Of a stretch of DNA of 64,000 nucleotides, positions 3,819 to 62,285 are shown piece after piece (positions within the stretch are counted from its first letter, which is position 1; each line of letters starts with the position of its first letter). A model generated the notes under the pieces. The model had not been told where the DNA came from. It saw only the letters and a list, made by a program, of their open reading frames with translations, and did no database searches. A program made the translations under genes and the position numbers. The stretch covers positions 5,394 through 69,393 of the forward strand of contig CALWAS010000019.1 in assembly GCA_944375905.1 (NCBI GenBank). The letters run 5' to 3'. This DNA is from an uncultured Bacilli bacterium. GTDB lineage: Bacteria; Bacillota_I; Bacilli_A; RFN20; CAG-826.

Positions 3819-4609
3819 TGCAGCAGTTCTCCGTAAATCTCAGAGTCCTCTTTGTCAACAATGGCGAAGATGATAATGGGAGCCGTATCGTGACGGTTTA
3901 GATAAGTGTCTACGGCATCGACGGCAATCCGCGCCGCTTCTTTCTTGGGATAGCGGTTGCCTCCCGTGCCTAGCGCCGGAAAAGCGATGGTTTTGAGTCC
4001 GGCTTCCTCGGCCAGGCGTAACGACGACCAATAGCAGTACTTGAGGTCCGTCTCGTCTTTGCGGGAAGGGCGGACGCCGACTTTCGGGGCAATGGCATGG
4101 ATGACGTAACTTGCCGGTATGTTTCTCGCTTTGGTAAGAAACGCTTTGCCAGGCGCGGCAAGAGACCCATGGAGTTCGTTTCGATAAGGAGCTAGCTCCT
4201 CGAGGAGCGAAAGTCCGCACGCCTGGTGAATCTGCGCATCAAGCGAAGTGTCGAAGGGGACTTTCGATCCCTCCAAAGTAGGAGAAGCAGAATCGACGAT
4301 TGCATCTACTTGAAGGCGGAGAATATCCCCCTCGTAGACAGCGACCTTTGCCAGCCCGCTGACCGGTAGCGAATAGGCGCTTACCCAGCCGCGTTCGCGG
4401 CTCTCTTCGGAGAGAATCCCATCGAGGGCCAAAACGACTTCCTGTGGCGCCCTTTTGGTTCCGAAAAAGGAAACGAGGGCCGCAAGGGCCCTTCGTTTTT
4501 CGCTATAGGTGGCCAATCTCGGCGGGATGAATCGCTCAAAAGACGGAAGCTCGCCTCGAAAGTACGAGAGGAGAAAATCGACTCTTTGCTCGCGACTCGC
4601 GAAGTTCAT
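3815..4609 (-). CDS. macrodomain protein (protein-ADP-ribose hydrolase-like, with N-terminal helical extension)
   Basis: 264 aa. Macro-fold motifs DAIVDSASPTLEG, VIHAIAPKVG and IAFPALGTGGNRYP. The roughly 90-aa N-terminal extension resembles the SirTM-associated macro subfamily. ATGA overlap with the upstream gene. Confidence 0.85.
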   Translation of the reverse strand: MNFASREQRVDFLLSYFRGELPSFERFIPPRLATYSEKRRALAALVSFFGTKRAPQEVVLALDGILSEESRERGWVSAYSLPVSGLAKVAVYEGDILRLQVDAIVDSASPTLEGSKVPFDTSLDAQIHQACGLSLLEELAPYRNELHGSLAAPGKAFLTKARNIPASYVIHAIAPKVGVRPSRKDETDLKYCYWSSLRLAEEAGLKTIAFPALGTGGNRYPKKEAARIAVDAVDTYLNRHDTAPIIIFAIVDKEDSEIYGELLQ

Positions 4610-5721
4610 TTCATCTCAATCAGTTCGTACTCGCGAGAACCGAGACCGATTTCCTGGCCATGGATAAGCGCGGCTTCCCAGTCAACATGCGGATTGGAGT
4701 CGTGGAACACCTGTCCGGTCGCTTCTTCTTTCGCGAGACGATCGCCCAATTGAGAATTGCGGAATGCCGTCTGCTTGTTGCAAAGGTCGACGCAAGCCTG
4801 ATCAAGGGCGACCGGGTCAGTAGAGCAAAGCATTCCGACGTCAGGAATGATCGGGGCATCGTTTTCGCCATGGCAGTCGCAATTCGGCGAAACGTCGGTA
4901 ATGAGGCTTATGTGGAAGCAGGGACGTCCGGTGACAACGGCTTTGGCGTATTCGGCCATCTTGTAACCCAAAAGCGTATTGGAGTTGTACTCGATGGGAG
5001 AAATGGCATCGAAGGCGCAGGCGCCAATGCAGCGGCCGCACCCCTTGCACTTCTCTAGGTCGACAACGGCTTTGTTATCGACGTAGGTGATGGCGTCCGA
5101 ACCGCATTCCTTGGCGCATTTGCGGCAGCCGCGGCACTTGTCATGATCGAACCGCGGTTTTCCGTTGCTGTGCTGGTCCATTTTGCCGGCTCTTGAGCCG
5201 CAGCCCATGCCGATGTTCTTGATGGCCCCGCCAAATCCGGCTTCCTCGTGTCCTTTGAAATGGCTGAGTGAAATAAAGATGTCCGCATCCATTACAGCGC
5301 GGCCAATATGGGCTTCTTTGATATAGGTTCCGCCCTCAACGGGAACCTCCACTTCATCCGTTCCCTTCAAACCATCGCCAATTATTACGTGGCAGCCGGT
5401 CGTGGTTTCGTTAAAACCGTTTAATTGGGCGCAAGTGAGATGATCTAGGGCGTTTTTTCGATATCCAGGGTAAAGAGTGTTGCAGTCGGTCAAAAACGGC
5501 CTGCCGCCCTGTTCCTTGACGAGATCGGCAACCGCTTTAGCGTAATTCGGGCGAAGGAACGAAAGGTTCCCGTACTCGCCGAAATGCATCTTGATGGCAA
5601 CGAACTTTCCATCAAAATCAATGTCTTTCAACCCGCCCTTTATCAAAAGGCGCTGAAGTTTGTGAGTTAGAGATTCACCAACCTTAACGCGAAAATCAGC
5701 AAAAAAGACCTTGCTAGACAT
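4606..5721 (-). CDS. DUF362 domain protein with 2x[4Fe-4S] ferredoxin insert
   Basis: 371 aa. Two CxxCxxCxxxC motifs (CRGCRKCAKEC, CKGCGRCIGAC). DUF362-like N- and C-terminal parts (FVAIKMHFGE, NCDCHG). GGAGG lies 9 nt upstream. Confidence 0.85.
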   Translation of the reverse strand: MSSKVFFADFRVKVGESLTHKLQRLLIKGGLKDIDFDGKFVAIKMHFGEYGNLSFLRPNYAKAVADLVKEQGGRPFLTDCNTLYPGYRKNALDHLTCAQLNGFNETTTGCHVIIGDGLKGTDEVEVPVEGGTYIKEAHIGRAVMDADIFISLSHFKGHEEAGFGGAIKNIGMGCGSRAGKMDQHSNGKPRFDHDKCRGCRKCAKECGSDAITYVDNKAVVDLEKCKGCGRCIGACAFDAISPIEYNSNTLLGYKMAEYAKAVVTGRPCFHISLITDVSPNCDCHGENDAPIIPDVGMLCSTDPVALDQACVDLCNKQTAFRNSQLGDRLAKEEATGQVFHDSNPHVDWEAALIHGQEIGLGSREYELIEMK

Positions 5722-16562: not shown

Positions 16563-16907
16563 TTTTCCACACACGATTGAGAGTATGGAAAACTTTCAAC
16601 AGCGGCAGGCAAAAGACGGAAGCCCAAACAGGAGAAAAAGTCCAGAATTTCTTTTCCACACACATGTTGACGGATTTTCCACAATTTGGTTGATATATCG
16701 CCTTTTGGTCGATGGAATCTTTTCTTTTTGAAGATAATTGTCAGTGGATAACGGTTCGAAATTCGCTGTTTTCCACAGCTGAAGTTTTCCACCGACTTTA
16801 TCCACAAGTTTTCCACATGTGAAAAGTTGTGGAAAACCTAAATAAGTCGGCACGGCGCGGGGTTTTTCTTCTTTTGATTGTGGATAACTTAACGAAAAAG
16901 TGGAAAA
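16563..16907. other. oriC DnaA-box cluster (rpmH-dnaA spacer)
   Basis: Perfect TTATCCACA at 16798-16806 (+) and 16879-16887 (-). TTTTCCACA at 16563, 16652, 16675, 16769 and 16809 (+) and 16828 (-). TTATCCACT at 16743 (-). Weaker boxes at 16785 and 16899. Gene orientation flips here. Confidence 0.88.
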
Positions 16908-16953: not shown

Positions 16954-18312
16954 ATGGAAAACACCCTCAGCGAACTAACGGCCCTATGGGGACGGGTTCT
17001 AAATCGAATCAAAGCCGAACTCGCGGACGACCCCCTCGTTTACGACAGCTTTTTCAAAGACTCCTACATCCATTCCCTCGACGGGAAGACGATCAATGTC
17101 GTCGTGAATTCCTCCCTAGCCGTCCAAATACTTCGCTCGCAGTACGAAAAAACGGTGCTCGGTGCGCTGGCCGATTGTACCGAAACCAACTTCGACGTCC
17201 ATTTCCTAAGCAAGGATCAGATATCGTCTTCTGCCGCGATAAAGCCCGCAAAACCCGCTTATTTTTCTGATTCTTACATAAATCCGAACTACACTTTCGA
17301 CAATTTCGTCGTCGGGGAAAGCAATCGCGAAGCCTACCAAGCGTCCCTCATGATCGCCCAGAACCCCGGCCACCTCTACAACCCGGTCCTGATCTTCGGC
17401 GAATCGGGGCTCGGCAAAACCCACCTCCTTCACGCCATCGGCAACAAAGTCAAAAGCAAGTACCCGGCAATGAAGGTGCTTTACATACACGCGCAGGAAT
17501 TCCTCAACGAATACGTTAAGTTCGTTTCCGGGGACATGGCCGGCATCTCCATATCGGACTGGTTCAAAAACGAGGTCGACTTCCTGCTCATCGACGATGT
17601 GCAGTTCCTTGCGAACAAGGAAAGGACCGAGGAGACTTTCTTCACCATTTACAACGACTTCTACAGCCGCGGGAAGCAAGTCGTCCTCACCTGCGACCAG
17701 CACCCAAGCAAGCTGAACGGACTCGACGAAAGGCTAAAGACGAGATTCGTCCAGGGGCTGCCGCTCTGCATAGCCCAGCCGGAACGCGAAACCTGCGAGC
17801 AGATCTTGCGAATGAGAATCAGGGCGAACGGCCTCAAGGAAAGCGATTTCGACCCCGAGGTCATCACCTTCTTCGCCAACACCTTCCACAAGAACGTTAG
17901 GGAACTCGAAGGGGCTTTCGACCGGTTGCTCTTCTTTGCCGTCCAAATGAACGGGTCCAACCACGTAACCCTAAAAATAGCTCAGACGGCCGTCTCTTCC
18001 CTGGTCGACGTCAAAGCGGCGACAGGCACGCTTTCCGCCGAGAAAGTAATCGACGCGGTGGCCGACTATTACGGCATACCCTCTTACCAGCTGACCGGCA
18101 AAATCAGGACGTCGCAGATCGCCTTGGCCCGGCACATCGCCATGTACCTCATACGCTCAAGGCTTGACGCCCCCTTTGCCAAAATCGGCTCTCTCTTCGG
18201 GGGACGCGACCACGCTACGGTGATGAACGGTGTAAACAAAGTGGAGAACTCGTTGAAAACGGACAAAGGTCTCCAAAAGGCGGTTTCCGACATTAATAAG
18301 AGATTGAAATAG
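16954..18312 (+). CDS. dnaA: chromosomal replication initiator DnaA
   Basis: 452 aa. AAA+ Walker A GESGLGKTHLLHAIGN and C-terminal DNA-binding domain (IALARHIAMYLIR ... HATV). Confidence 0.98.
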   Translation: MENTLSELTALWGRVLNRIKAELADDPLVYDSFFKDSYIHSLDGKTINVVVNSSLAVQILRSQYEKTVLGALADCTETNFDVHFLSKDQISSSAAIKPAKPAYFSDSYINPNYTFDNFVVGESNREAYQASLMIAQNPGHLYNPVLIFGESGLGKTHLLHAIGNKVKSKYPAMKVLYIHAQEFLNEYVKFVSGDMAGISISDWFKNEVDFLLIDDVQFLANKERTEETFFTIYNDFYSRGKQVVLTCDQHPSKLNGLDERLKTRFVQGLPLCIAQPERETCEQILRMRIRANGLKESDFDPEVITFFANTFHKNVRELEGAFDRLLFFAVQMNGSNHVTLKIAQTAVSSLVDVKAATGTLSAEKVIDAVADYYGIPSYQLTGKIRTSQIALARHIAMYLIRSRLDAPFAKIGSLFGGRDHATVMNGVNKVENSLKTDKGLQKAVSDINKRLK

Positions 18313-27999: not shown

Positions 28000-28130
28000 C
28001 TGTCTTCCGAAGCAATGCACGATCGGCAGCTGGGAGCAGGTAAGACAATTGTAACATAAAAGTTTGTTTTCACAACCAACCTTTGTCTTTCCTTTTAGGT
28101 GGGCTTTTCCTTCTTTCGGCGTATAATGCC

Positions 28131-28216
28131 TACGCCATCGCGATGGAAGGTTTCCGAACCAGGTCAGGCGGGGAACCGAGCAGCCTTAAGGCTTCCGACC
28201 ATGCGCGGTGGTTTTT
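28131..28216 (+). ncRNA. ffs: signal recognition particle RNA, small (4.5S-like) type
   Basis: The conserved domain IV sequence CCAGGTCAGGCGG-GGAA-CCGAGCAGCC matches the AGGUCAGG..GGAA..AGCAGCC core. The closing helix CCATCGCG/CGCGGTGG is fully paired. TATAAT sits at 28122-28127, and a T-run follows the 3' end. Confidence 0.82.
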
Positions 28217-28235
28217 ATCTTGCTAACATACTGCC

Positions 28236-54186: not shown

Positions 54187-55317
54187 TTAGGCGATTCTCT
54201 TGCTCGGGAAGAGAAGATTGACCCTTGCCATTGGGATGTAAAGAGCCTCGAGGCAAGCGAGGGTGACGGCCCCCGTTACCGGAATGTAGACCCCGTTGTA
54301 GGCAACGGCTGCCGGCAGGGTGTATCCGTAGATGACCATCGAGGAAACCGTCGAGCCGAAGAGGCGGACGAGGGTCATGAGGATCGAACCGATGGCGATG
54401 TAAAGGAATCCCCATTTGTTCCATCCTTCCTTTCCGGAGAAGACGAGCTTGCTAAAGAAGCCGAGGCAGGCAATCGAGCCGAAGCCGATCAGGTAATCGA
54501 ACGGATAGGTCTGGAAGCCGTATCCATCGGTAAGGCAGGTTATCAGGCCATAGACGAGGCCGCCGGCGATGAAGCCTTTGGTCGGGCCGTGTCGAAGGGC
54601 GATTACGGAAAGAGGAACGAGTCCCAAATTGATCGATCCGCCGGAAGCTCCGACGGGAATCTTTATGAACTGAAGGGCAATGGCCAGCGCCGAAAGAATT
54701 CCGATTTCCGATATGTCCCGTATGGAAATGGATACTTCCTGGGTCGAAAGGGAAAGGCTCACGATGGCCGAAACGAATAGAAGGACGGCCATGACGAGCG
54801 TTCCCGAGGAGAACGATGGGGCGGCCGCGGCCAGGTAATCGTATCCGGGTCCTCCCCAATCGAGAGCGATGTCATAGCCGATGGCGTGCCAGCATTCCCC
54901 GTAGGCCAATAGACTCGGGGAGACGAGGATGAGGACGCCGGCGACGAGGGAAACCATCGAGGCAGCTAGTGATAGCTGGGCGATGTATTTCCTGCAAATC
55001 GCCCCTATGATTAGCAAAATCAAGGAAACGACCGGCAGCATGTACACCCAAAGGACCATCCAGTTGACGCCGTTTTCAAAGAAGGAAGCAAAGAACAATT
55101 CGCTTTCTCCGACGGCCTCGAACACGTAGCCCGAGGTCCATTCCCCATCTTCGTTTAGCACCGGTCCTCCCGAAACGGAGATGACGTTTTGCTCGAATTG
55201 CGGGGCCGTGAGGGCCAAGAAGACGACTGCAGCGAAGACGATGGCCACGAGCCAAAGCCACTTTTTCAGGAATTCCTGCAGGTCGAATTCCCTTTTCGCG
55301 CTTGCCTGTTCATCCAT
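54187..55317 (-). CDS. thiT: ThiT-like ECF-transporter S component fused to a ~190-aa N-terminal multi-TM extension
   Basis: The C-terminal half (LSALAIALQFIKIPVGASGGSINLGLVPLSVIALRHGPTKGF ... PFDYLIGFG) fits ThiT. A TPP riboswitch lies immediately upstream. The N-terminal half has about 4 extra TM helices. Confidence 0.78.
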   Translation of the reverse strand: MDEQASAKREFDLQEFLKKWLWLVAIVFAAVVFLALTAPQFEQNVISVSGGPVLNEDGEWTSGYVFEAVGESELFFASFFENGVNWMVLWVYMLPVVSLILLIIGAICRKYIAQLSLAASMVSLVAGVLILVSPSLLAYGECWHAIGYDIALDWGGPGYDYLAAAAPSFSSGTLVMAVLLFVSAIVSLSLSTQEVSISIRDISEIGILSALAIALQFIKIPVGASGGSINLGLVPLSVIALRHGPTKGFIAGGLVYGLITCLTDGYGFQTYPFDYLIGFGSIACLGFFSKLVFSGKEGWNKWGFLYIAIGSILMTLVRLFGSTVSSMVIYGYTLPAAVAYNGVYIPVTGAVTLACLEALYIPMARVNLLFPSKRIA

Positions 55318-55320
55318 TTA

Positions 55321-55445
55321 AAAAGCCTCCTTTTGCTCAGGAGGCACCCAAAGAAAAATGGTTACCTCCGCCAGCATTATCTGGATCAGGTACCGTCGGG
55401 CCGCCGTTATCGGCCCCTCTCAGCCTCCTCGGGGAAGCTCCGGGC
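55321..55445 (-). promoter_or_regulatory. TPP (THI-box) riboswitch with an SD-sequestering terminator hairpin
   Basis: The minus strand reads GGCTGAGAGGGGCC...GGTACCTGATCCAGATAATGCTGGCGGAGG. CTGAGA is at 55418-55423 and ACCTGATCCAGATAATGCTGGCG at 55369-55391. The hairpin GCCTCC-TGAGCAAAA-GGAGGC (55325-55345) pairs with the SD and is followed by T5. Confidence 0.88.
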
Positions 55446-55504
55446 AAGAAAATGATAGAGCCTCTTCCTCTTCTTTCAAGGGCGGTTTTGCTAAGATTCT
55501 CGCC

Positions 55505-56137
55505 GTGAACAATTTTTGGAAAGAGAAAACGGAACTTCCGGAAGGGCTCAAGGCTGAGCTCGGGGAGCTTGCAAGCGGGGAACCCGTCTTTTCGTTTCAG
55601 ATCGGAAATAGGAGGGCAGCCCTCCTCAAAGTCGACCATCGCGCATTCAGGAAGGCCTTCGACCTCAACCGGCCCTATCTTTTTCATGGAGAATTCACCG
55701 CCAAGGGAGAAGACAACGACTATTCGAAGGCCGATACCTATCTCCTCGAAGGCGGCCTCGCGGGGTTTGCCGTTTCGTCTGACGGCTGGGCATATTCGCT
55801 TTTCTCCAACGAGAGGGGAGGCTTCTTGAAGGGCGTCGCCCCGTTTTTCAAAAAGAAGTCGAACAAACTCTGCTGCCTTTGCGGCGAGCATAACGATAGG
55901 CTAGCAAGGGCTTATTCCGACCTCCTCGGCTATGTCTTGGCAGCCGAGACAGCCGACGACGAAGCGAGGATGAGAACGTATTACGACGACGAATTTGTCA
56001 ATTATTTCGTGGAAATGAACGGTAAGCCCCGTCATCTTTTCTTCGTCGCGCCTCCGTTGAAGGAAAAGGCGAAGACGGTCGCAAGCTACTACGACGGCGT
56101 AGATTTCATATCCTCTCTATACCCATTGGAATCCTGA
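55505..56137 (+). CDS. hypothetical protein, possibly GNAT-like; start uncertain
   Basis: The ORF-track start (55358) overlaps the antisense TPP aptamer. The first plausible in-frame start downstream is the GTG at 55505. GLAGFAVSSDGWAYSLFSN ... KLCCLCGEHNDRLARAYSDLLGY loosely resembles an uncharacterised acetyltransferase-fold family. Confidence 0.4.
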   Translation: MNNFWKEKTELPEGLKAELGELASGEPVFSFQIGNRRAALLKVDHRAFRKAFDLNRPYLFHGEFTAKGEDNDYSKADTYLLEGGLAGFAVSSDGWAYSLFSNERGGFLKGVAPFFKKKSNKLCCLCGEHNDRLARAYSDLLGYVLAAETADDEARMRTYYDDEFVNYFVEMNGKPRHLFFVAPPLKEKAKTVASYYDGVDFISSLYPLES

Positions 56138-56184
56138 TTTCCTTGCCCGGAACGGTTCACAAACCATACAATGTTTTTAAACAT

Positions 56185-56862
56185 ATGCACAATATCAAGG
56201 TAATCGAGGTCAGGCAGTCGGTTTTTGCCCACAACGAGAAGAAAGCCGACGAACTCCGCCTTAAGCTTAAGGAGCAGGGAACATACCTCCTCAACGTCAT
56301 GTCGTCGCCGGGAAGCGGCAAGACGACCCTTTTGGTCGCCCTCATCAACCTGCTCAAGGAGAAGCTCAGGATCGGCGTCATGGAAGCCGACATCGATGCG
56401 CGGGTCGACGCGGACAAGGTTCACGGGCTGACCGGCGTCAAAACGATCGAGCTTCATACCGGCGGCGCTTGCCATCTCGACGCGAAAATGTGCGAGGAAG
56501 GGCTCGATGCCCTCGGGGTCGACGGCCTCGATCTCGTCATCCTCGAGAATGTCGGGAACCTAGTCTGCCCGGCTGAATTCGATACCGGATCCGCCTCGAA
56601 CCTAAATATCCTTTCGATCCCGGAAGGCGACGACAAGCCGCTCAAGTATCCGCTCATGTTCCAGGTTTGCTCGGCCTTCGTCTTCTCGAAAATCGATACG
56701 ATGCCCGTCTTCGACTTTTCGATCGAACGCGCCAAGGCGAACATCCTCAAGCTCAATGGAAAAGCGCGTTTCTTCCCGGTTTCGGCCAAAACCGGAGAGG
56801 GAATGGACGAACTGGCTGCCTACATCTACGAAACGGTTAGGGCCTTCAAAGAAGGTCGCTAA
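56185..56862 (+). CDS. hypB: hydrogenase/urease nickel-incorporation GTPase HypB
   Basis: The ATG at 56185 is preferred over the TTG at 56143. P-loop SSPGSGKTTLL, ENVGNLVCPAEFD, and SKID (NKxD-like). No His-rich or CxxCGC N-terminus. Confidence 0.9.
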   Translation: MHNIKVIEVRQSVFAHNEKKADELRLKLKEQGTYLLNVMSSPGSGKTTLLVALINLLKEKLRIGVMEADIDARVDADKVHGLTGVKTIELHTGGACHLDAKMCEEGLDALGVDGLDLVILENVGNLVCPAEFDTGSASNLNILSIPEGDDKPLKYPLMFQVCSAFVFSKIDTMPVFDFSIERAKANILKLNGKARFFPVSAKTGEGMDELAAYIYETVRAFKEGR

Positions 56863-56888
56863 GACATAGTTCCATAAGGAGGATGGAT

Positions 56889-59735
56889 ATGGACGAGAAG
56901 AAGTACCGCGTCGAACGCCAAGGCTACGCCGAGGAAGAATACCGCCTCGGCGCAAGGAAGAATTCGCTTCCGGCCGGAGAAAAGGAGCGGAAGTGGATAA
57001 CTCGGCTCGCCAACCACATCCAGAATCTTCCGACGGCCCATGTCGTGGCCGGAGACCCCGAATACAACGCCCTGGCTTGCTGCGTAAGCGACGAAGAGGC
57101 GAAGATCGTCTGCAAGATGAAGCTTCGGAAGCACTACTCGCTTGCCGAGCTCATCAAGAAGACGAAACTCGCCAAGGAAGTCATCGAGCCGCTTCTTACC
57201 AACCTCGCGATGACTGGCGTTCTCATGTATGACCCCGAGGATCCAGAAGTCGGCCCCGATTCCGAGAACAAGAAGCAGGGCGGCTATTGGGTTCCGATTT
57301 TCGTCCCCGGCATCATGGAGTGCCTCGTCGACAACGTGAAGCTCGCGGAAGCCCACCCGGAAATCCCGAAGGCATTCAACGAATACACCATCAAGCGGAT
57401 CATGCCGCTTGCCGGCAACCTTCCCGTCGGCGGCGGCGTCATGCGCGTCATCCCGATCGAGAAAGCCATCAAGGACGACCCCAAGCACACCGTTGACGAG
57501 GAAATCAGCCATTACGTCGAGACGGCAACCGATATCTGCGTCTCGCCGTGTTCTTGCCGGGTAGCCCGAAGGATCCAAGGCGAAGGATGCGGCCATCTCG
57601 AAGATGACATGTGCATCCAGTTCAATGAGGCCGCCCGCGCCTTCATCCACGCGGGAAGGGGACGGAGGATTAGCAAGGAAGAGTGCTATGAGATCCTCAA
57701 GAAGGCCGAAGACAACGGCCTCATGCACGAAATGCCGAATACCGACGGCGTCGGTTCGACCCACGCCCTTTGCAACTGCTGCGGCTGCTCGTGCTTTTCG
57801 CTCCGGACTGGCGAGTATTTCCATACCGCCACGATGGTAAGGAGCAACTACATTTCGAAGATCGATCCGGACAAGTGCGTAGCCTGCGGCGAATGCGTCG
57901 AAGCCTGCCCGATGAACGCCTTGAAGCTCGGCGAGCGGCTTCCGAACAAGAAGCCGATCAAGGTCAAGACGCCGCTTAGTGCCTTCGACCACAAGTGGGG
58001 TGCCGACAAGTGGAACCCCGATTACCGCTACAACCGCGAGTACGTAATGGAAGAGACCGGCACGGCCCCCTGCAAGGTCGCCTGCCCCGCCCATATCGCG
58101 ATCGAAGGCTATTTGGAGTTGGCCCGGCAGGGACGCTTTGCCGAAGCGCTTGCCCTCATCAAGGAAAAGAACCCGCTCCCGGCCGTTTGCGGCCGCGTTT
58201 GCAATAAGCGCTGCGAAGACGCCTGCACGAGGGGAAGCATCGACTCGCCCATTTCGATCGACGAGGTCAAGAAATACATTGCCCAGCTCGATATTGAGCA
58301 AAAGACGCGGGTTTTGCCGAGGATAGAGCATCCGGAATTCGCCTCGATCAAGATGGCGGTCGTCGGTTCGGGCCCGGCTGGGATTTCCTGCGCCTACTAC
58401 CTTGCCGCCAAAGGGTACAGCGTTACCGTTTTCGAAAAGGAAGAGCGTCTCGGCGGCATGCTTACGCTAGGCATTCCCTCCTTCCGGTTGGAGAAGGACA
58501 TCGTCGAAGCCGAAATCGCCGTCCTCAAAGACCTTGGCGTCGAGTTCAAGACCGGCGTCGAGGTCGGAAAGAACGTCTCCATCTCCGAACTTAAGGAAGA
58601 AGGCTACAAGGCCATCTATCTTGCCATCGGTGCCCAGGACGGGAGAAAGCTCGGGGTGCCGGGAGAAGAAAACCAAGGCGTTCTCTCGGGCATTGCCTTC
58701 CTGAAGGCCGTCAACCTCGGAAAGGCCCCGCGCCTCCACGGTCGCGTCGCCATCATGGGCGGCGGCAACGTCGCGATCGACGTCGCGAGGACGGCCATCC
58801 GCTATGGCGCTTCGGCCGTCGACCTCTATTGCCTCGAGGGCCGGGACATCATGACCGCGGCCAAAGAGGAAATCGAAGAGGCCGAGAAGGAAGGCATCCT
58901 CATCCACAACGGATGGGGCGTGAAGGAATTCCAAGGCGAGAGGGGAACGCTCAAGAAGGCCGTTCTCAAGAAGTGCGTTTCGGTCTACGACGAGCATTAC
59001 CGCTTCAATCCGGCCTACGATGAAAAACAGCTCCTCGAAGTCGAGTGCGATTTCTTCATCTCGGCCATTGGCCAAAGCTACCGCTGGGGGCATCTCCTCG
59101 ACGGGACCGGCTGCACGCTTCTTCCGTCGGGACGCATAAAGGCCGACCCGCTCACCTATCAAAGCGACGACCCCGACATCTTCGTCGGCGGCGATTGCTA
59201 TCTCGGGCCGCGCTTCGCCATCGATGCCATCGCGACCGGGAAGGAAGGCGCGGAGAGCATGCACCGGCACGTTCACGAAGGTCAGTCCCTCCTTGTCGGG
59301 CGGGCTCAGAACCCGTATCTCGCTTCCTACATGCTCGACAAGGACAACATCGTCGTCCAGGGATTCGACAATGCCCCGCGGGTCGAGGTGCGAGTCCAAA
59401 AGCTCGACGATCCGATGAAGGACGGCCGCGTCATCCTTAGCGAGGAAGAAGTTAAGAAGGAAGCCGGGCGCTGCCTCAAGTGCGGCCGGACCTACGTCGA
59501 CGAGACGATGTGCGTCGGCTGCGGCCTATGCACGACCAAGTGCAAATTCGATGCCATCAGCCTCGTCCGCCGTTTCGACGCCTATGGCGTTCCCTACGAG
59601 AAGTCGACGACGAATGCCGCTCCTCACCTCATTTCCCGGAACCTGAAGATCGTCTTCACCGGAAAGGGAAAGGAAAAGGAAGTAAGCAAGGACCTCCTCG
59701 ACAAGCAAGACGCCAGGAAGGAAACGATTCGCTGA
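56889..59735 (+). CDS. multidomain Fe-S flavoprotein: Cys-rich Fe-S module + GltD/NfnB-like NAD(P)H:FAD oxidoreductase + C-terminal ferredoxin
   Basis: The second ATG (56889) has better AGGAGG spacing. N-terminal module: CVSPCSC, CGHLEDDMC, CNCCGCSC, CVACGECVEACP. Middle: CPAHIAIEGY ... CGRVCNKRCEDAC, VAVVGSGPAGISCAYYLA, IMGGGNVAID. C-terminus: CLKCG ... CVGCGLCTTKC. Confidence 0.85.
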   Translation: MDEKKYRVERQGYAEEEYRLGARKNSLPAGEKERKWITRLANHIQNLPTAHVVAGDPEYNALACCVSDEEAKIVCKMKLRKHYSLAELIKKTKLAKEVIEPLLTNLAMTGVLMYDPEDPEVGPDSENKKQGGYWVPIFVPGIMECLVDNVKLAEAHPEIPKAFNEYTIKRIMPLAGNLPVGGGVMRVIPIEKAIKDDPKHTVDEEISHYVETATDICVSPCSCRVARRIQGEGCGHLEDDMCIQFNEAARAFIHAGRGRRISKEECYEILKKAEDNGLMHEMPNTDGVGSTHALCNCCGCSCFSLRTGEYFHTATMVRSNYISKIDPDKCVACGECVEACPMNALKLGERLPNKKPIKVKTPLSAFDHKWGADKWNPDYRYNREYVMEETGTAPCKVACPAHIAIEGYLELARQGRFAEALALIKEKNPLPAVCGRVCNKRCEDACTRGSIDSPISIDEVKKYIAQLDIEQKTRVLPRIEHPEFASIKMAVVGSGPAGISCAYYLAAKGYSVTVFEKEERLGGMLTLGIPSFRLEKDIVEAEIAVLKDLGVEFKTGVEVGKNVSISELKEEGYKAIYLAIGAQDGRKLGVPGEENQGVLSGIAFLKAVNLGKAPRLHGRVAIMGGGNVAIDVARTAIRYGASAVDLYCLEGRDIMTAAKEEIEEAEKEGILIHNGWGVKEFQGERGTLKKAVLKKCVSVYDEHYRFNPAYDEKQLLEVECDFFISAIGQSYRWGHLLDGTGCTLLPSGRIKADPLTYQSDDPDIFVGGDCYLGPRFAIDAIATGKEGAESMHRHVHEGQSLLVGRAQNPYLASYMLDKDNIVVQGFDNAPRVEVRVQKLDDPMKDGRVILSEEEVKKEAGRCLKCGRTYVDETMCVGCGLCTTKCKFDAISLVRRFDAYGVPYEKSTTNAAPHLISRNLKIVFTGKGKEKEVSKDLLDKQDARKETIR

Positions 59736-59738
59736 TCC

Positions 59739-60083
59739 ATGCACGAAATGGGAATCTGCCTCGAGCTTTTCGCTTCCCTCCGCGACGTGATGAAAGAGAA
59801 CGGGATAACCGCGCTCTCCTCGGTGACTTTGACCCTCGGCAAGGCTTCCATGGTCGTGCCGAGGTACATGAAGGATTGCTGGGAAATCGCTAGGGACGGA
59901 ACCGAATTCGCCTCGACCGAGCTCAAGATCGTCGAGACGCCCGCCCACGGACGATGCCTAGACTGCGGATTCGTTTTCGACATCGAGAAATTCGACCGCA
60001 AATGCCCGAAGTGCGGGGCCGTCGATTCATTCGTTCCGCTCGATGGCAAGGAATGTGAGATAACCGAGATCGAGGCTGCGTAA
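59739..60083 (+). CDS. hypA: nickel metallochaperone HypA
   Basis: 114 aa. MHE N-terminal Ni motif and zinc site CLDCG-x12-CPKCG. Starts 3 nt after the preceding stop. Confidence 0.9.
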   Translation: MHEMGICLELFASLRDVMKENGITALSSVTLTLGKASMVVPRYMKDCWEIARDGTEFASTELKIVETPAHGRCLDCGFVFDIEKFDRKCPKCGAVDSFVPLDGKECEITEIEAA

Positions 60084-60098
60084 CCAAAATGCATCAAA

Positions 60099-60125
60099 TT
60101 AGCACTCTCCACTTGCGAGTGCTAA
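60099..60125. promoter_or_regulatory. CIRCE element (HrcA operator)
   Basis: Perfect TTAGCACTC-N9-GAGTGCTAA, 42 nt upstream of the clpB ATG. Confidence 0.92.
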
Positions 60126-60167: not shown

Positions 60168-62285
60168 ATGGACAACGGAATGATGGATTATCAAAACGAC
60201 GAGAACATCCTTGAGAAGTTCGGTCGCAACATCAATTCGGACGTCAAGGCCGGCAAGATCGACCCGGTCATCGGCCGCGACGACGAAATACGCAAAGTCA
60301 TCCAGATTCTTGCCCGCAAAAGCAAGAACAACGTCATCCTTCTAGGCGAGCCGGGCGTTGGCAAGACTGCCATCGTCGAAGGCCTGGCCGAGCGGATCGT
60401 CAAAGACGACGTTCCGACCTCCCTCAAGGACAAGGAAGTATACGAGCTCGACATGGGAGCCCTCCTCGCCGGAGCCAAATACCGCGGCGAATTCGAGGAG
60501 CGTCTCAAGGCCGTCCTCAACAAGATAAAGAACAGCAACGGCAAGATCATCCTCTTCATCGACGAGATACATCTCATCGTGGGGGCCGGTCGCACGGACG
60601 GGGCCATGGATGCCTCGAACATGCTCAAGCCATTGCTCGCCCGCGGCGAAATCGACTGCATCGGGGCCACGACCCTCAACGAGTATCGAAACTACATCGA
60701 AAAGGACCGCGCCCTCGAGCGCCGCTTTCAGCCTGTCATGGTCGGTGAACCGACCGTCGAGGACACCGTTTCGATTCTCCGCGGCCTCAAGGAGCGCTTC
60801 GAGTCGTTCCACGGCGTCGAGATCACCGACGGGGCCCTCGTGGCCGCGGCCGTCCTCTCGAACCGCTACATCACCAATCGCTTCCTTCCCGACAAAGCCA
60901 TCGATCTCGTCGACGAAGCTTGCGCGACCATAAAGGTCGAAATCGAGTCGATGCCGGTCGAACTCGACGAAGTAAACCGCAAGATCCGGCAGCTCGAGGT
61001 CGAGAAGGTCAATCTCGCCAAGGAAAAGGACGAGTCGAGCAAGAAACGCCTCGCCGACCTTGAAGGAGAGCTTTCCTCCCTCAAGAAGCAAAACGACGAG
61101 CTCACCAAGAAGTGGGAAGTCGAAAAAGGCGAGATCAACGAAGCCAAGGAGCTAAAGAAAAGGATCGAGAAGGCCAAGTTCGACCTTCAGACGTCTTTCT
61201 CGCACGGCGACTACGAAACGGCTTCCCGCCTCCAATACCAGGAAATCCCGGAAATGGAAAAGCGCCTTTCCGCTATATCCAAGAAGGGCGCGGACGAAGA
61301 GCGCCTCGTCAACGAGGTGGTGGACGAGGATCTAATCGCCAAGATCGTCTCCAAGATGACGAACATCCCTGTTTCGAGGATCGAGAAGGGGGACCGCGAA
61401 AAAGTCCTCGACCTCAAGAAGACCCTTGAGGCACGGGTAATCGGCCAAGACGAGGCCATAACCCTCGTCTCGAATGCCATTCTCCGTCAGCGGGCCGGCA
61501 TCCAGAACCCGAATCGGCCAATCGGAAGCTTTCTCTTCCTCGGGCCGACCGGCGTTGGTAAAACCGAGGTCAGCAAGGCCTTGGCGGAAGCCCTCTTCGA
61601 CAACGAGAACAACATCATCAGGATCGACATGTCCGAGTACATGGAAAAGTACTCGGTCAGCCGTCTCATCGGGGCCCCGCCTGGATACGTCGGCTACGAA
61701 GAAGGGGGCCAGCTTACCGAAAAGGTGAGGCGGAACCCCTATTCGATCGTCCTCTTCGACGAAATCGAGAAGGCGAACCCGGAGGTTTACAACCTCTTGC
61801 TCCAGATTCTCGACGAAGGGCGGCTTACCGACAGCCAAGGGCGGCTCGTCGATTTCAAGAACACCATCATCATCATGACGAGCAACCTCGGGAGCGATTA
61901 CATCCTAGAGGGACACAAAGAGATGGTGGAGCCGCTCCTTCACCAGACCTTCAAGCCGGAATTCCTCAACCGGATCGACGAAATCGTCTACTTCAATCCG
62001 CTGGGGAAAGAGGTGCAGAAGGACATCGTCAAGAAGATGCTTGGCGAGCTTAGGCATCGTCTCGAAGGGCGTTACTACGAAGTCGATTTCGATGAATCGC
62101 TCGTCGATTACATCCTCGATAGCGCCTACACCCCGAAATACGGTGCCCGGCCGCTAAAGCGCTTCATCTCCGACAAGATCGAGACTTTCCTCGCGACGAA
62201 GATCGTCGAAGGGAGCCTCTCGACCGAGAAGGCCTACTGTCTATCCTACGATGGGAAAGACGGGCTCCTTCTCAAGGCGAAATAG
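60168..62285 (+). CDS. clpB: ClpB disaggregase lacking the N-terminal domain
   Basis: 705 aa. NBD1 [15 protein letters not shown], a coiled-coil M-domain ([18 protein letters not shown]...), and NBD2 GPTGVGKTE. The protein begins about 20 aa before NBD1. Confidence 0.95.

Follow-up and report, generated by a model that had tools for sequence, protein, structure and literature searches.

What do two nickel chaperones serve when their genes bracket that of a large iron-sulphur (Fe-S) flavoprotein and no nickel enzyme is encoded nearby? The question is raised by a 64-kilobase (kb) stretch of DNA from an uncultured gut Bacilli bacterium (contig CALWAS010000019.1; the whole stretch is referred to below as the window). 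Three consecutive open reading frames (ORFs) lie head to tail on its + strand, separated by 26 and 3 nucleotides (nt). The first is hypB (56185..56862, +), encoding a G3E-family GTPase nickel chaperone of 225 amino acids (aa) counted from the ATG. The second, here called X (56889..59735, +), encodes a 948-aa Fe-S flavoprotein reductase assigned by its architecture to the IsrA family ('clade 9'), and the third is hypA (59739..60083, +), encoding a 114-aa nickel metallochaperone. A sequence-only reading of the window had described this layout, with hypB ending at 56862, X following 26 nt on and hypA beginning 3 nt past the X stop, and the coordinates agree with our re-reading. We also agree with its statement that the 64 kb contain no other nickel-enzyme gene. 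No hydrogenase, hypCDEF, urease, carbon monoxide dehydrogenase (CODH) or lar genes were found in the window among the ORFs of at least 220 aa and the genes of near-identical contigs. These are housekeeping genes around the replication origin, among them those for PPDK, GlmU, IspE, KsgA, TatD, MnmE, YidC, DnaA, DnaN, RecF, GyrBA, SerRS, ABC and P-type ATPases, TldD/PmbA, MetRS and ClpB. No gene for an NfnA or GltB partner was found near X. As set out below, it is likely that hypB-X-hypA is a conserved module in which an IsrA-family Fe-S flavoprotein reductase, dependent on reduced nicotinamide adenine dinucleotide (phosphate) (NAD(P)H), is encoded alongside two nickel chaperones dedicated to it.

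Conservation of the hypB-X-hypA arrangement

The three window proteins were searched with tblastn against fetched loci of relatives. The genes hypB, X and hypA were present in identical order and orientation in six lineages. X is 80-84% identical in the window's own clade, 67-70% in a second gut Bacilli clade, 53% in Clostridium isatidis, 52% in both Gottschalkia purinilytica and Thermobrachium celere, and 47% in a Faecalibacterium metagenome-assembled genome (MAG). In this MAG (L014, 320-4828), two tandem hypB genes, with products that share 47% and 49% identity with HypB of the window, are followed by the X homolog and hypA. The gene neighbours outside the three genes differ completely from lineage to lineage, and hypCDEF or hydrogenase genes were never present in the 10-kb flanks of the related loci inspected. 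Among the fetched loci, only a spirochaete MAG carries X alone.

An independent sample of 80 metagenome loci was collected with a profile of the Cys-rich core of X, and their ORFs were scored with hidden Markov models of these HypA and HypB sequences. The hypB gene was directly 5' of X in 47 of 69 informative loci, and hypA was directly 3' in 39 of 55. Where both flanks were informative, the exact sandwich was observed in 30 of 47 loci, with hypA and/or hypB otherwise ordered in 8 of the 47. When X was clustered at 90% identity, 22 of 31 clusters contained the sandwich only. Recurrent neighbours in these loci were DUF5692 (18), TetR (12) and a CbiM/NikM-family transporter (3); in C. isatidis, hypA is directly followed by DUF5692 and CbiM. 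The sequence-only reading had asked whether relatives keep the arrangement and had held that its absence from them, combined with a canonical NiFe-hydrogenase or urease operon elsewhere in the genome, would speak for a chance insertion. The arrangement is kept, in six lineages down to 47% identity of X and in 30 of 47 informative metagenome loci.

Assignment of X to the IsrA family

IsrA was described by Kronen et al. (2023, mSystems, PMC10134865) as the putative isoprene reductase of Acetobacterium wieringae ISORED-2, where a five-gene operon, isrA-hypA-hypB-ferredoxin-hypA, is strongly induced by isoprene. The protein, 901 aa long, starts with ~270 aa that carry no InterPro or CDD annotation and contains an NfnB-like module that binds flavin adenine dinucleotide (FAD) and NAD(P)H. 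Besides four canonical [4Fe-4S] clusters, it has a 'Cys6' site, to which the CxC motifs C180/182 and C254/256 belong. Across 988 'clade 9' homologs, co-occurrence was 73% for HypA (mean distance 1.05 genes), 56% for HypB, 40% for DUF5692 and 21% for TetR (PMC10134865). These authors proposed that HypAB put nickel into the Cys-rich N-terminal site and remarked on its resemblance to the A-cluster. They further reported that [NiFe]-hydrogenase and hypCDEF are missing from the A. wieringae ISORED-2 genome, whose other nickel enzymes come with maturases of their own. In the same paper, isoprene is not reduced by Acetobacterium homologs of 47-49% identity, and a 26-residue insertion (IsrA 756-782) is specific to the isoprene-reducing cluster. 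Two 2026 preprints report that hypA and hypB are upregulated 373-fold and 585-fold, respectively, during isoprene reduction by Pelotomaculum. A study of strain Y named the same protein as the candidate and left the hyp genes unmentioned.

In X, 74 residues separate the CxC motif C221/C223 from C295/C297, and the same distance separates C180/182 from C254/256 in IsrA. The ferredoxin motif starts at residue 330 of X versus 289 of IsrA, an offset of +41 that is uniform with that of the CxC motifs. X also shares with clade 9 its full length, the unannotated N-domain, the two CxC motifs at fixed spacing, the NfnB-like module with domain II of dihydropyrimidine dehydrogenase (DPD-II), two ferredoxin-type motifs, and a position directly flanked by hypB and hypA. 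Because the motif spacing is that of IsrA with a uniform +41 offset, X is, as judged from its architecture and motif spacing against the published description of IsrA, a clade 9 homolog. The synteny frequencies found here match the published ones (PMC10134865), and the hypB-X-hypA sandwich is the commonest layout of the published IsrA-hypAB association.

The discovery of the family and the hypothesis that it is a nickel client belong to Kronen et al. (2023; PMC10134865); the window locus extends this published, biochemically uncharacterised family by a member from uncultured gut Bacilli. The sequence-only reading had offered two alternatives, chaperones that serve an enzyme encoded elsewhere, or X as an undescribed nickel (or other metal) client or redox partner. 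A role as client or partner is favoured by the conserved sandwich and the retained nickel ligands, whereas "undescribed" was wrong.

Nickel ligands in HypB and HypA

HypB scores 225 bits against TIGR00073, far above the equivalog cutoff of 121 (NCBIfam), and 160 bits against Helicobacter pylori HypB (4lps). The GSGKT P-loop, the Cys-His pair of GGACHLDA and the Cys of ENVGNLVCP are aligned and conserved. It is of the short 'type 1', which lacks an N-terminal tail rich in His and Cys. HypA matches PF01155 at 94 bits (cutoff 29; Pfam) and has the N-terminal MHE nickel motif and two zinc-site CxxC pairs, C73/C76 and C89/C92. Its score of 63.5 bits against TIGR00100 lies below the equivalog cutoff of 88.1 (NCBIfam), suggesting that it belongs to a divergent subfamily; such divergence would be consistent with a client other than hydrogenase. 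As read from the alignments, the nickel-binding residues are kept in both window chaperones, CH...C in HypB and MHE in HypA.

Domain architecture of X

Pfam domains were assigned to X at residues 326-348 (Fer4), 394-473 (Fer4_20, DPD-II) and 490-786 (Pyr_redox_2), followed by a C-terminal CxxCxxCxxxC motif, and PF00037 matches X twice. The segment with PF14691 and PF07992 (58065..59288, +) is recognised by Pfam, by PDB sequence matches and by Foldseek. Matches among PDB sequences were 9bov_A (302 bits) and the NfnB chain 5jca_L (220 bits). A full-length AlphaFold2 model was obtained with a predicted local distance difference test score (pLDDT) of 89.7 and a predicted template modelling score (pTM) of 0.90. 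In Foldseek, this model gave matches to the NfnB/DPD-type module only, namely NfnABC, StnC, NfnB and dihydropyrimidine dehydrogenase (DPD) at E values of 1e-42 to 1e-30 over residues ~393-870. The scores of X are nevertheless below the cutoffs of the NfnB and GltD families (PRK12771, 428 versus 516 bits; TIGR01316, 254 versus 472; TIGR01317, 199 versus 448). Judged by these profiles, X has an NfnB/GltD-type module yet falls outside the NfnB and GltD families. X has homologs of 890-950 aa that are 50-84% identical to it and align over 91-100% of its length.

The remaining parts of X flank this module. A winged-helix-like subdomain may occupy residues ~55-135 (57051..57293, +), where weak Foldseek matches (best E 0.012) are MarR/Lrs14/AbfR2-like and a faint Lrs14 match was found in NCBIfam (E 0.07). 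It is followed by the Cys-rich core, residues 138-322 (57300..57854, +), with invariant Cys and His, the proposed catalytic and nickel site. The first ferredoxin half, residues 326-348 (57864..57932, +), matches PF00037 and has invariant Cys at 330, 333, 336 and 340. Residues 862-895 (59472..59573, +) contain a CxxC and the second ferredoxin half, with C862, C865, C875, C878, C881 and C885 invariant. The Cys-rich, NAD(P)H-FAD and ferredoxin parts that the sequence-only reading had distinguished are thus all present, but what it took for a second ferredoxin is half of one split 2x[4Fe-4S] domain.

The N-terminal Cys-rich domain and its stand-alone forms

At the sequence level, residues 1-324 of X matched nothing in Pfam, NCBIfam or the PDB. 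A model of the N-domain alone (pLDDT 68, good across residues 30-300) gave no Foldseek match in the PDB at E<=0.001, only weak winged-helix matches. As modelled, the Cys-rich core is without a solved structural relative. Invariance was counted over 60 homologs with identities down to 50%. Nine Cys of the N-domain (221, 223, 234, 242, 295, 297, 298, 300 and 302) and two His (H236 and H280) are invariant in all 60. The motifs read earlier from the sequence, CVSPCSC (217-223), CNCCGCSC (295-302) and CVACGECVEACP (330-341), are present, although C217 is not conserved, being Ser in 37 of 60 homologs and Ser, Thr or Ala in most. This rules out a nitrile-hydratase-like reading of CVSPCSC. An acetyl-CoA synthase (ACS)-like Cys-Gly-Cys reading of CNCCGCSC is weakened, since the Gly varies as G/A/S/E/D across the family.

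Searching with the profile of the core (residues 128-322) returned 2,157 cluster representatives (50% identity) at E<=0.001, comprising the ~900-aa fusions and many proteins of ~320-400 aa. The short, stand-alone proteins consist of the Cys-rich domain and a complete 2x[4Fe-4S] ferredoxin whose halves are contiguous. In BLASTP, residues 93-298 of one of them, P0206, match X 133-347, and the directly following residues 305-330 match X 870-895. This alignment suggests that X is a protein of the stand-alone type with an NfnB-type module of ~520 aa between its ferredoxin halves. Six Cys (221, 223, 242, 295, 297 and 302) are invariant in both architectures. H236 was rejected as a universal ligand, being invariant in the ~900-aa family and not in the stand-alone proteins. 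Of two stand-alone loci, one (L103) has the Cys-domain protein next to an X-hypA-hypB cluster, immediately 5' of it, which recalls the isr operon, and the other lies on a contig too short for neighbours. The list of nine Cys, the absence of a solved relative for the domain, the ~2,100 clusters and the split-ferredoxin insertion architecture are new here.

Proposed function and alternatives

The gene and domain content, the conserved arrangement and the nickel ligands of HypA and HypB are observations; from them we infer nickel, an electron path and a class of substrate for X. Electrons would pass from NAD(P)H to the FAD of the NfnB-type module, on to the two DPD-II [4Fe-4S] clusters, then through the two clusters of the split ferredoxin to a metal site formed by the nine invariant N-domain Cys. 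HypB, as the GTPase, would load nickel onto HypA, which would insert it into or beside the N-terminal Fe-S site without HypCDEF. The site would then be a Ni-Fe-S centre and not a NiFe(CN)2CO centre. Simple insertion of Ni(II) at an Fe-S cluster is suggested by the retained nickel ligands of HypA and HypB together with the absence of hypCDEF alongside the loci inspected. Two further observations support nickel: a CbiM/NikM-family transporter gene adjoins the module in C. isatidis and in the three metagenome loci mentioned above, and the nine-Cys domain has no other assigned cofactor. The reaction would be the reduction of a bond that is hard to reduce. The likeliest candidate is a C=C bond, unactivated or conjugated, of a small hydrophobic compound, in line with the proposal for isoprene in A. 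wieringae. The substrate in gut Bacilli probably differs from isoprene, since the 47-49%-identical Acetobacterium homologs are inactive on it (PMC10134865).

Several points weigh against a nickel-dependent X. In 9 of the 47 informative metagenome loci (about one fifth) and in the spirochaete genome, X keeps all its Cys motifs although neither hypA nor hypB is present within 6-10 kb. L044, L051, L054, L066, L086, L093 and L095 have X without either gene within 6 kb. In this hyp-less metagenome group, CNCCECSC or CNCCDCSC replaces CNCCGCSC, and the profile scores are very similar; the group lends itself as a natural test of the family's need for the chaperones. The spirochaete, Spirochaetae bacterium HGW-3, has a pair of X paralogs at a distance of 10 kb (L016, 10001-12703 and 22624 onward) with no hyp genes. 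Stand-alone Cys-domain proteins are likewise not associated with hypAB (PMC10134865). The nine Cys could hold iron-sulphur alone, for example as a double cubane, and the window pair could be the HypA and HypB of a hydrogenase, the sub-cutoff score of HypA notwithstanding. The host genome is known here from the 64-kb window alone, and the literature searched reports no metal content or activity for any purified member of the X/IsrA family.

In a rival explanation, HypA and HypB mature a nickel enzyme encoded elsewhere, such as a [NiFe]-hydrogenase, CODH or urease. X would then be nickel-free, and its gene would share their transcript because X is a redox partner or because this is convenient for regulation. 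The Helicobacter proteins are pleiotropic chaperones, Pelotomaculum genomes with IsrA homologs do carry [NiFe]-hydrogenases, and part of the X loci have no hypA and hypB. This explanation is nonetheless unlikely. The sandwich is kept across deep divergence while its flanks change and bring no hypCDEF or hydrogenase within the 10 kb inspected, and A. wieringae ISORED-2 has the association with neither a [NiFe]-hydrogenase nor hypCDEF, its other nickel enzymes being served by their own maturases (PMC10134865).

It is improbable, too, that the pair delivers another metal (Zn, Co or Fe) to X, or that X serves the chaperones, for example as a reductase for metal release. G3E GTPases do include the zinc and cobalt chaperones COG0523, CobW and MeaB, the HypA score is under the TIGR00100 equivalog cutoff, and the adjoining CbiM-family transporter could carry cobalt besides nickel. 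However, HypB is far above its equivalog cutoff with CH...C kept, HypA retains the MHE nickel site, and a 948-aa wire from NAD(P)H through FAD and four [4Fe-4S] clusters to a nine-Cys site resembles a substrate reductase and not a chaperone accessory. That an unrelated gene came to lie between hypB and hypA by chance can be dismissed as next to impossible, being refuted by the same order in 30 of 47 metagenome loci and six lineages with different neighbours and by published neighbourhood statistics that span 988 homologs (PMC10134865).

We therefore return to the reading of hypB-X-hypA as a reductase encoded with its own nickel chaperones. A wider proposal can be put forward only tentatively, and we hold it to be somewhat less probable than its negation. 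In it, X/IsrA would form a distinct class of nickel enzyme, with a Ni-Fe-S centre bound by the nine invariant Cys in a fold without a solved relative, matured by HypAB alone, supplied by an NfnB-type wire and hydrogenating unactivated C=C bonds. Its members, common in Bacilli and Clostridia of human and animal guts, would act on host or diet hydrocarbons (such as isoprene, terpenes or polyenes), and the stand-alone ferredoxins of ~350 aa would be ancestral forms driven by external reductants.

To our knowledge, the known kinds of nickel enzyme number only about ten, and we know of no established biochemical basis for the enzymatic hydrogenation of unactivated alkenes. If the X/IsrA family does need nickel, it would add to both. 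Whether a new class of nickel enzyme reduces unactivated alkenes is an important and testable question, first posed in 2023. The window locus offers a compact module in uncultured gut Bacilli (three genes, one direction, no extra ferredoxin) that is convenient as a minimal construct for heterologous expression, and the split-ferredoxin insertion and the list of invariant Cys provide concrete targets for mutagenesis and spectroscopy.

Gene starts and surroundings of the module

A Shine-Dalgarno sequence for X, AAGGAGG (56876..56882, +), was read 6 nt 5' of ATG 56889, and this start is favoured over the in-frame ATG 56883 because of that spacing. The resulting 948-aa product agrees with the gene call on contig L001 (ENA), a near-identical strain with 99.1-99.6% identity at the protein level. 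Translation of hypA is probably coupled to that of X, as suggested by its start 3 nt past the X stop. Just 5' of hypB lies a promoter-like candidate, TTGCCC-18-TACAAT (56143..56172, +; 9/12 matches), which would give a very short leader ahead of the hypB ATG at 56185. It stays a mere candidate, as the scan of the region for promoters and terminators returned no more sites than in shuffles. No NiCo or other riboswitch was found near the operon with Rfam. The sole Rfam match in the window is a small bacterial signal recognition particle (SRP) RNA at 28127-28224 (+; RF00169, 50.5 bits).

Directly 5' of hypB, separated by 47 nt, is a 259-aa ORF (55358-56137, +) without a Pfam match, which may or may not be co-transcribed with hypB. 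A counterpart of 42-45% identity precedes hypB in the closest relatives (L008, L009 and L010). Among the loci examined, none was detected in those of the second gut Bacilli clade or in those from beyond Bacilli. Further upstream, a 376-aa membrane protein (54187-55317, -) has a C-terminal half of the ThiT/YuaJ type, an energy-coupling factor (ECF) thiamine S-component (PF09515), and an N-terminal membrane extension of ~200 residues without annotation. On the other side of the module, clpB (60168-62285) follows hypA, as it does in the two gut Bacilli clades with this flank in common. Between the two genes is a perfect controlling inverted repeat of chaperone expression (CIRCE; 60099-60125, TTAGCACTC-N9-GAGTGCTAA), the operator through which HrcA controls heat-shock genes. 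Its position between hypA and clpB suggests that clpB is probably controlled by HrcA and the hyp module separately.

Nine DnaA boxes (TTATCCACA, <=1 mismatch) were found at 16563-16887, just 5' of dnaA (16954-18312), and the window total of 14 was reached by no shuffle. These boxes, together with yidC and mnmE on the - strand and dnaN-recF-gyrB-gyrA downstream, point to a chromosomal origin (oriC) at 16563-16887, ~40 kb from the hyp module. A DUF362 protein (4606-5721, -) with an embedded 2x[4Fe-4S] ferredoxin is a further uncharacterised Fe-S protein, unrelated to X. In the spirochaete locus L016, the region between the X paralogs carries a 2-hydroxyacyl-CoA dehydratase-like set, with two HGD-D genes and a BcrAD/BadFG activator, and a SMODS/SAVED defence locus resembling a cyclic-oligonucleotide-based antiphage signalling system (CBASS) lies upstream.

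Comparison with known systems

The closest known system is that of IsrA. Both proteins are of ~900 aa with an unannotated N-domain of ~270-310 aa. One ferredoxin motif lies 35 residues past the second CxC and another is C-terminal, and both proteins have the NfnB-type module for FAD and NAD(P)H, DPD-II clusters included. Their genes have hypA and hypB as neighbours. They differ in gene order, which is hypB-X-hypA here and isrA-hypA-hypB-fdx-hypA in A. wieringae. The window locus has neither a second hypA nor a stand-alone Cys-domain 'ferredoxin', X is ~41 residues longer at its N-terminus, and its host belongs to an uncultured gut lineage of Bacilli/Firmicutes.

Residues 393-870 of X have the same fold as the large subunits of NfnB, StnC and NfnABC (5jca, 8oh5, 9bov and 9n5u), at 32-36% identity, and share with them the 2x[4Fe-4S] DPD-II domain, the FAD domain and the NAD(P)H domain. 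In contrast to these enzymes, X has an extra N-terminal region of 390 aa with the nine-Cys site and no NfnA-type partner nearby. The known enzymes are electron-bifurcating transhydrogenases, whereas bifurcation is not indicated for X. DPD (1h7w) resembles the scheme proposed for X in that a single polypeptide passes electrons from NADPH by way of FAD and four [4Fe-4S] clusters to a distal catalytic site, where a C=C bond is reduced. The distal site is a flavin mononucleotide (FMN)/TIM-barrel in DPD, in contrast to a Cys-rich site in a fold without a PDB match in X.

H. pylori HypA and HypB deliver nickel to hydrogenase and urease. Like the window pair, they comprise a short 'type 1' HypB with CH...C and a HypA with MHE and a zinc ribbon, and serve, as the window pair presumably does, a client beyond or besides hydrogenase. 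Unlike them, the window pair brackets its presumed client X, and no hypCDEF was present in any locus inspected. The [NiFe]-hydrogenase system of HypABCDEF differs in the same respect, as neither hypCDEF nor a large subunit was found in the 64-kb window or in the related 10-kb flanks. The A-cluster of ACS and the C-cluster of CODH share with X a Cys-rich setting that could hold a cubane and nickel. No sequence or fold similarity between them and X was detected, however, and the Gly of CNCCGCSC is not conserved. ACS and CODH use CooC/AcsF-type ATPases and not HypAB, the pair that would supply nickel to X.

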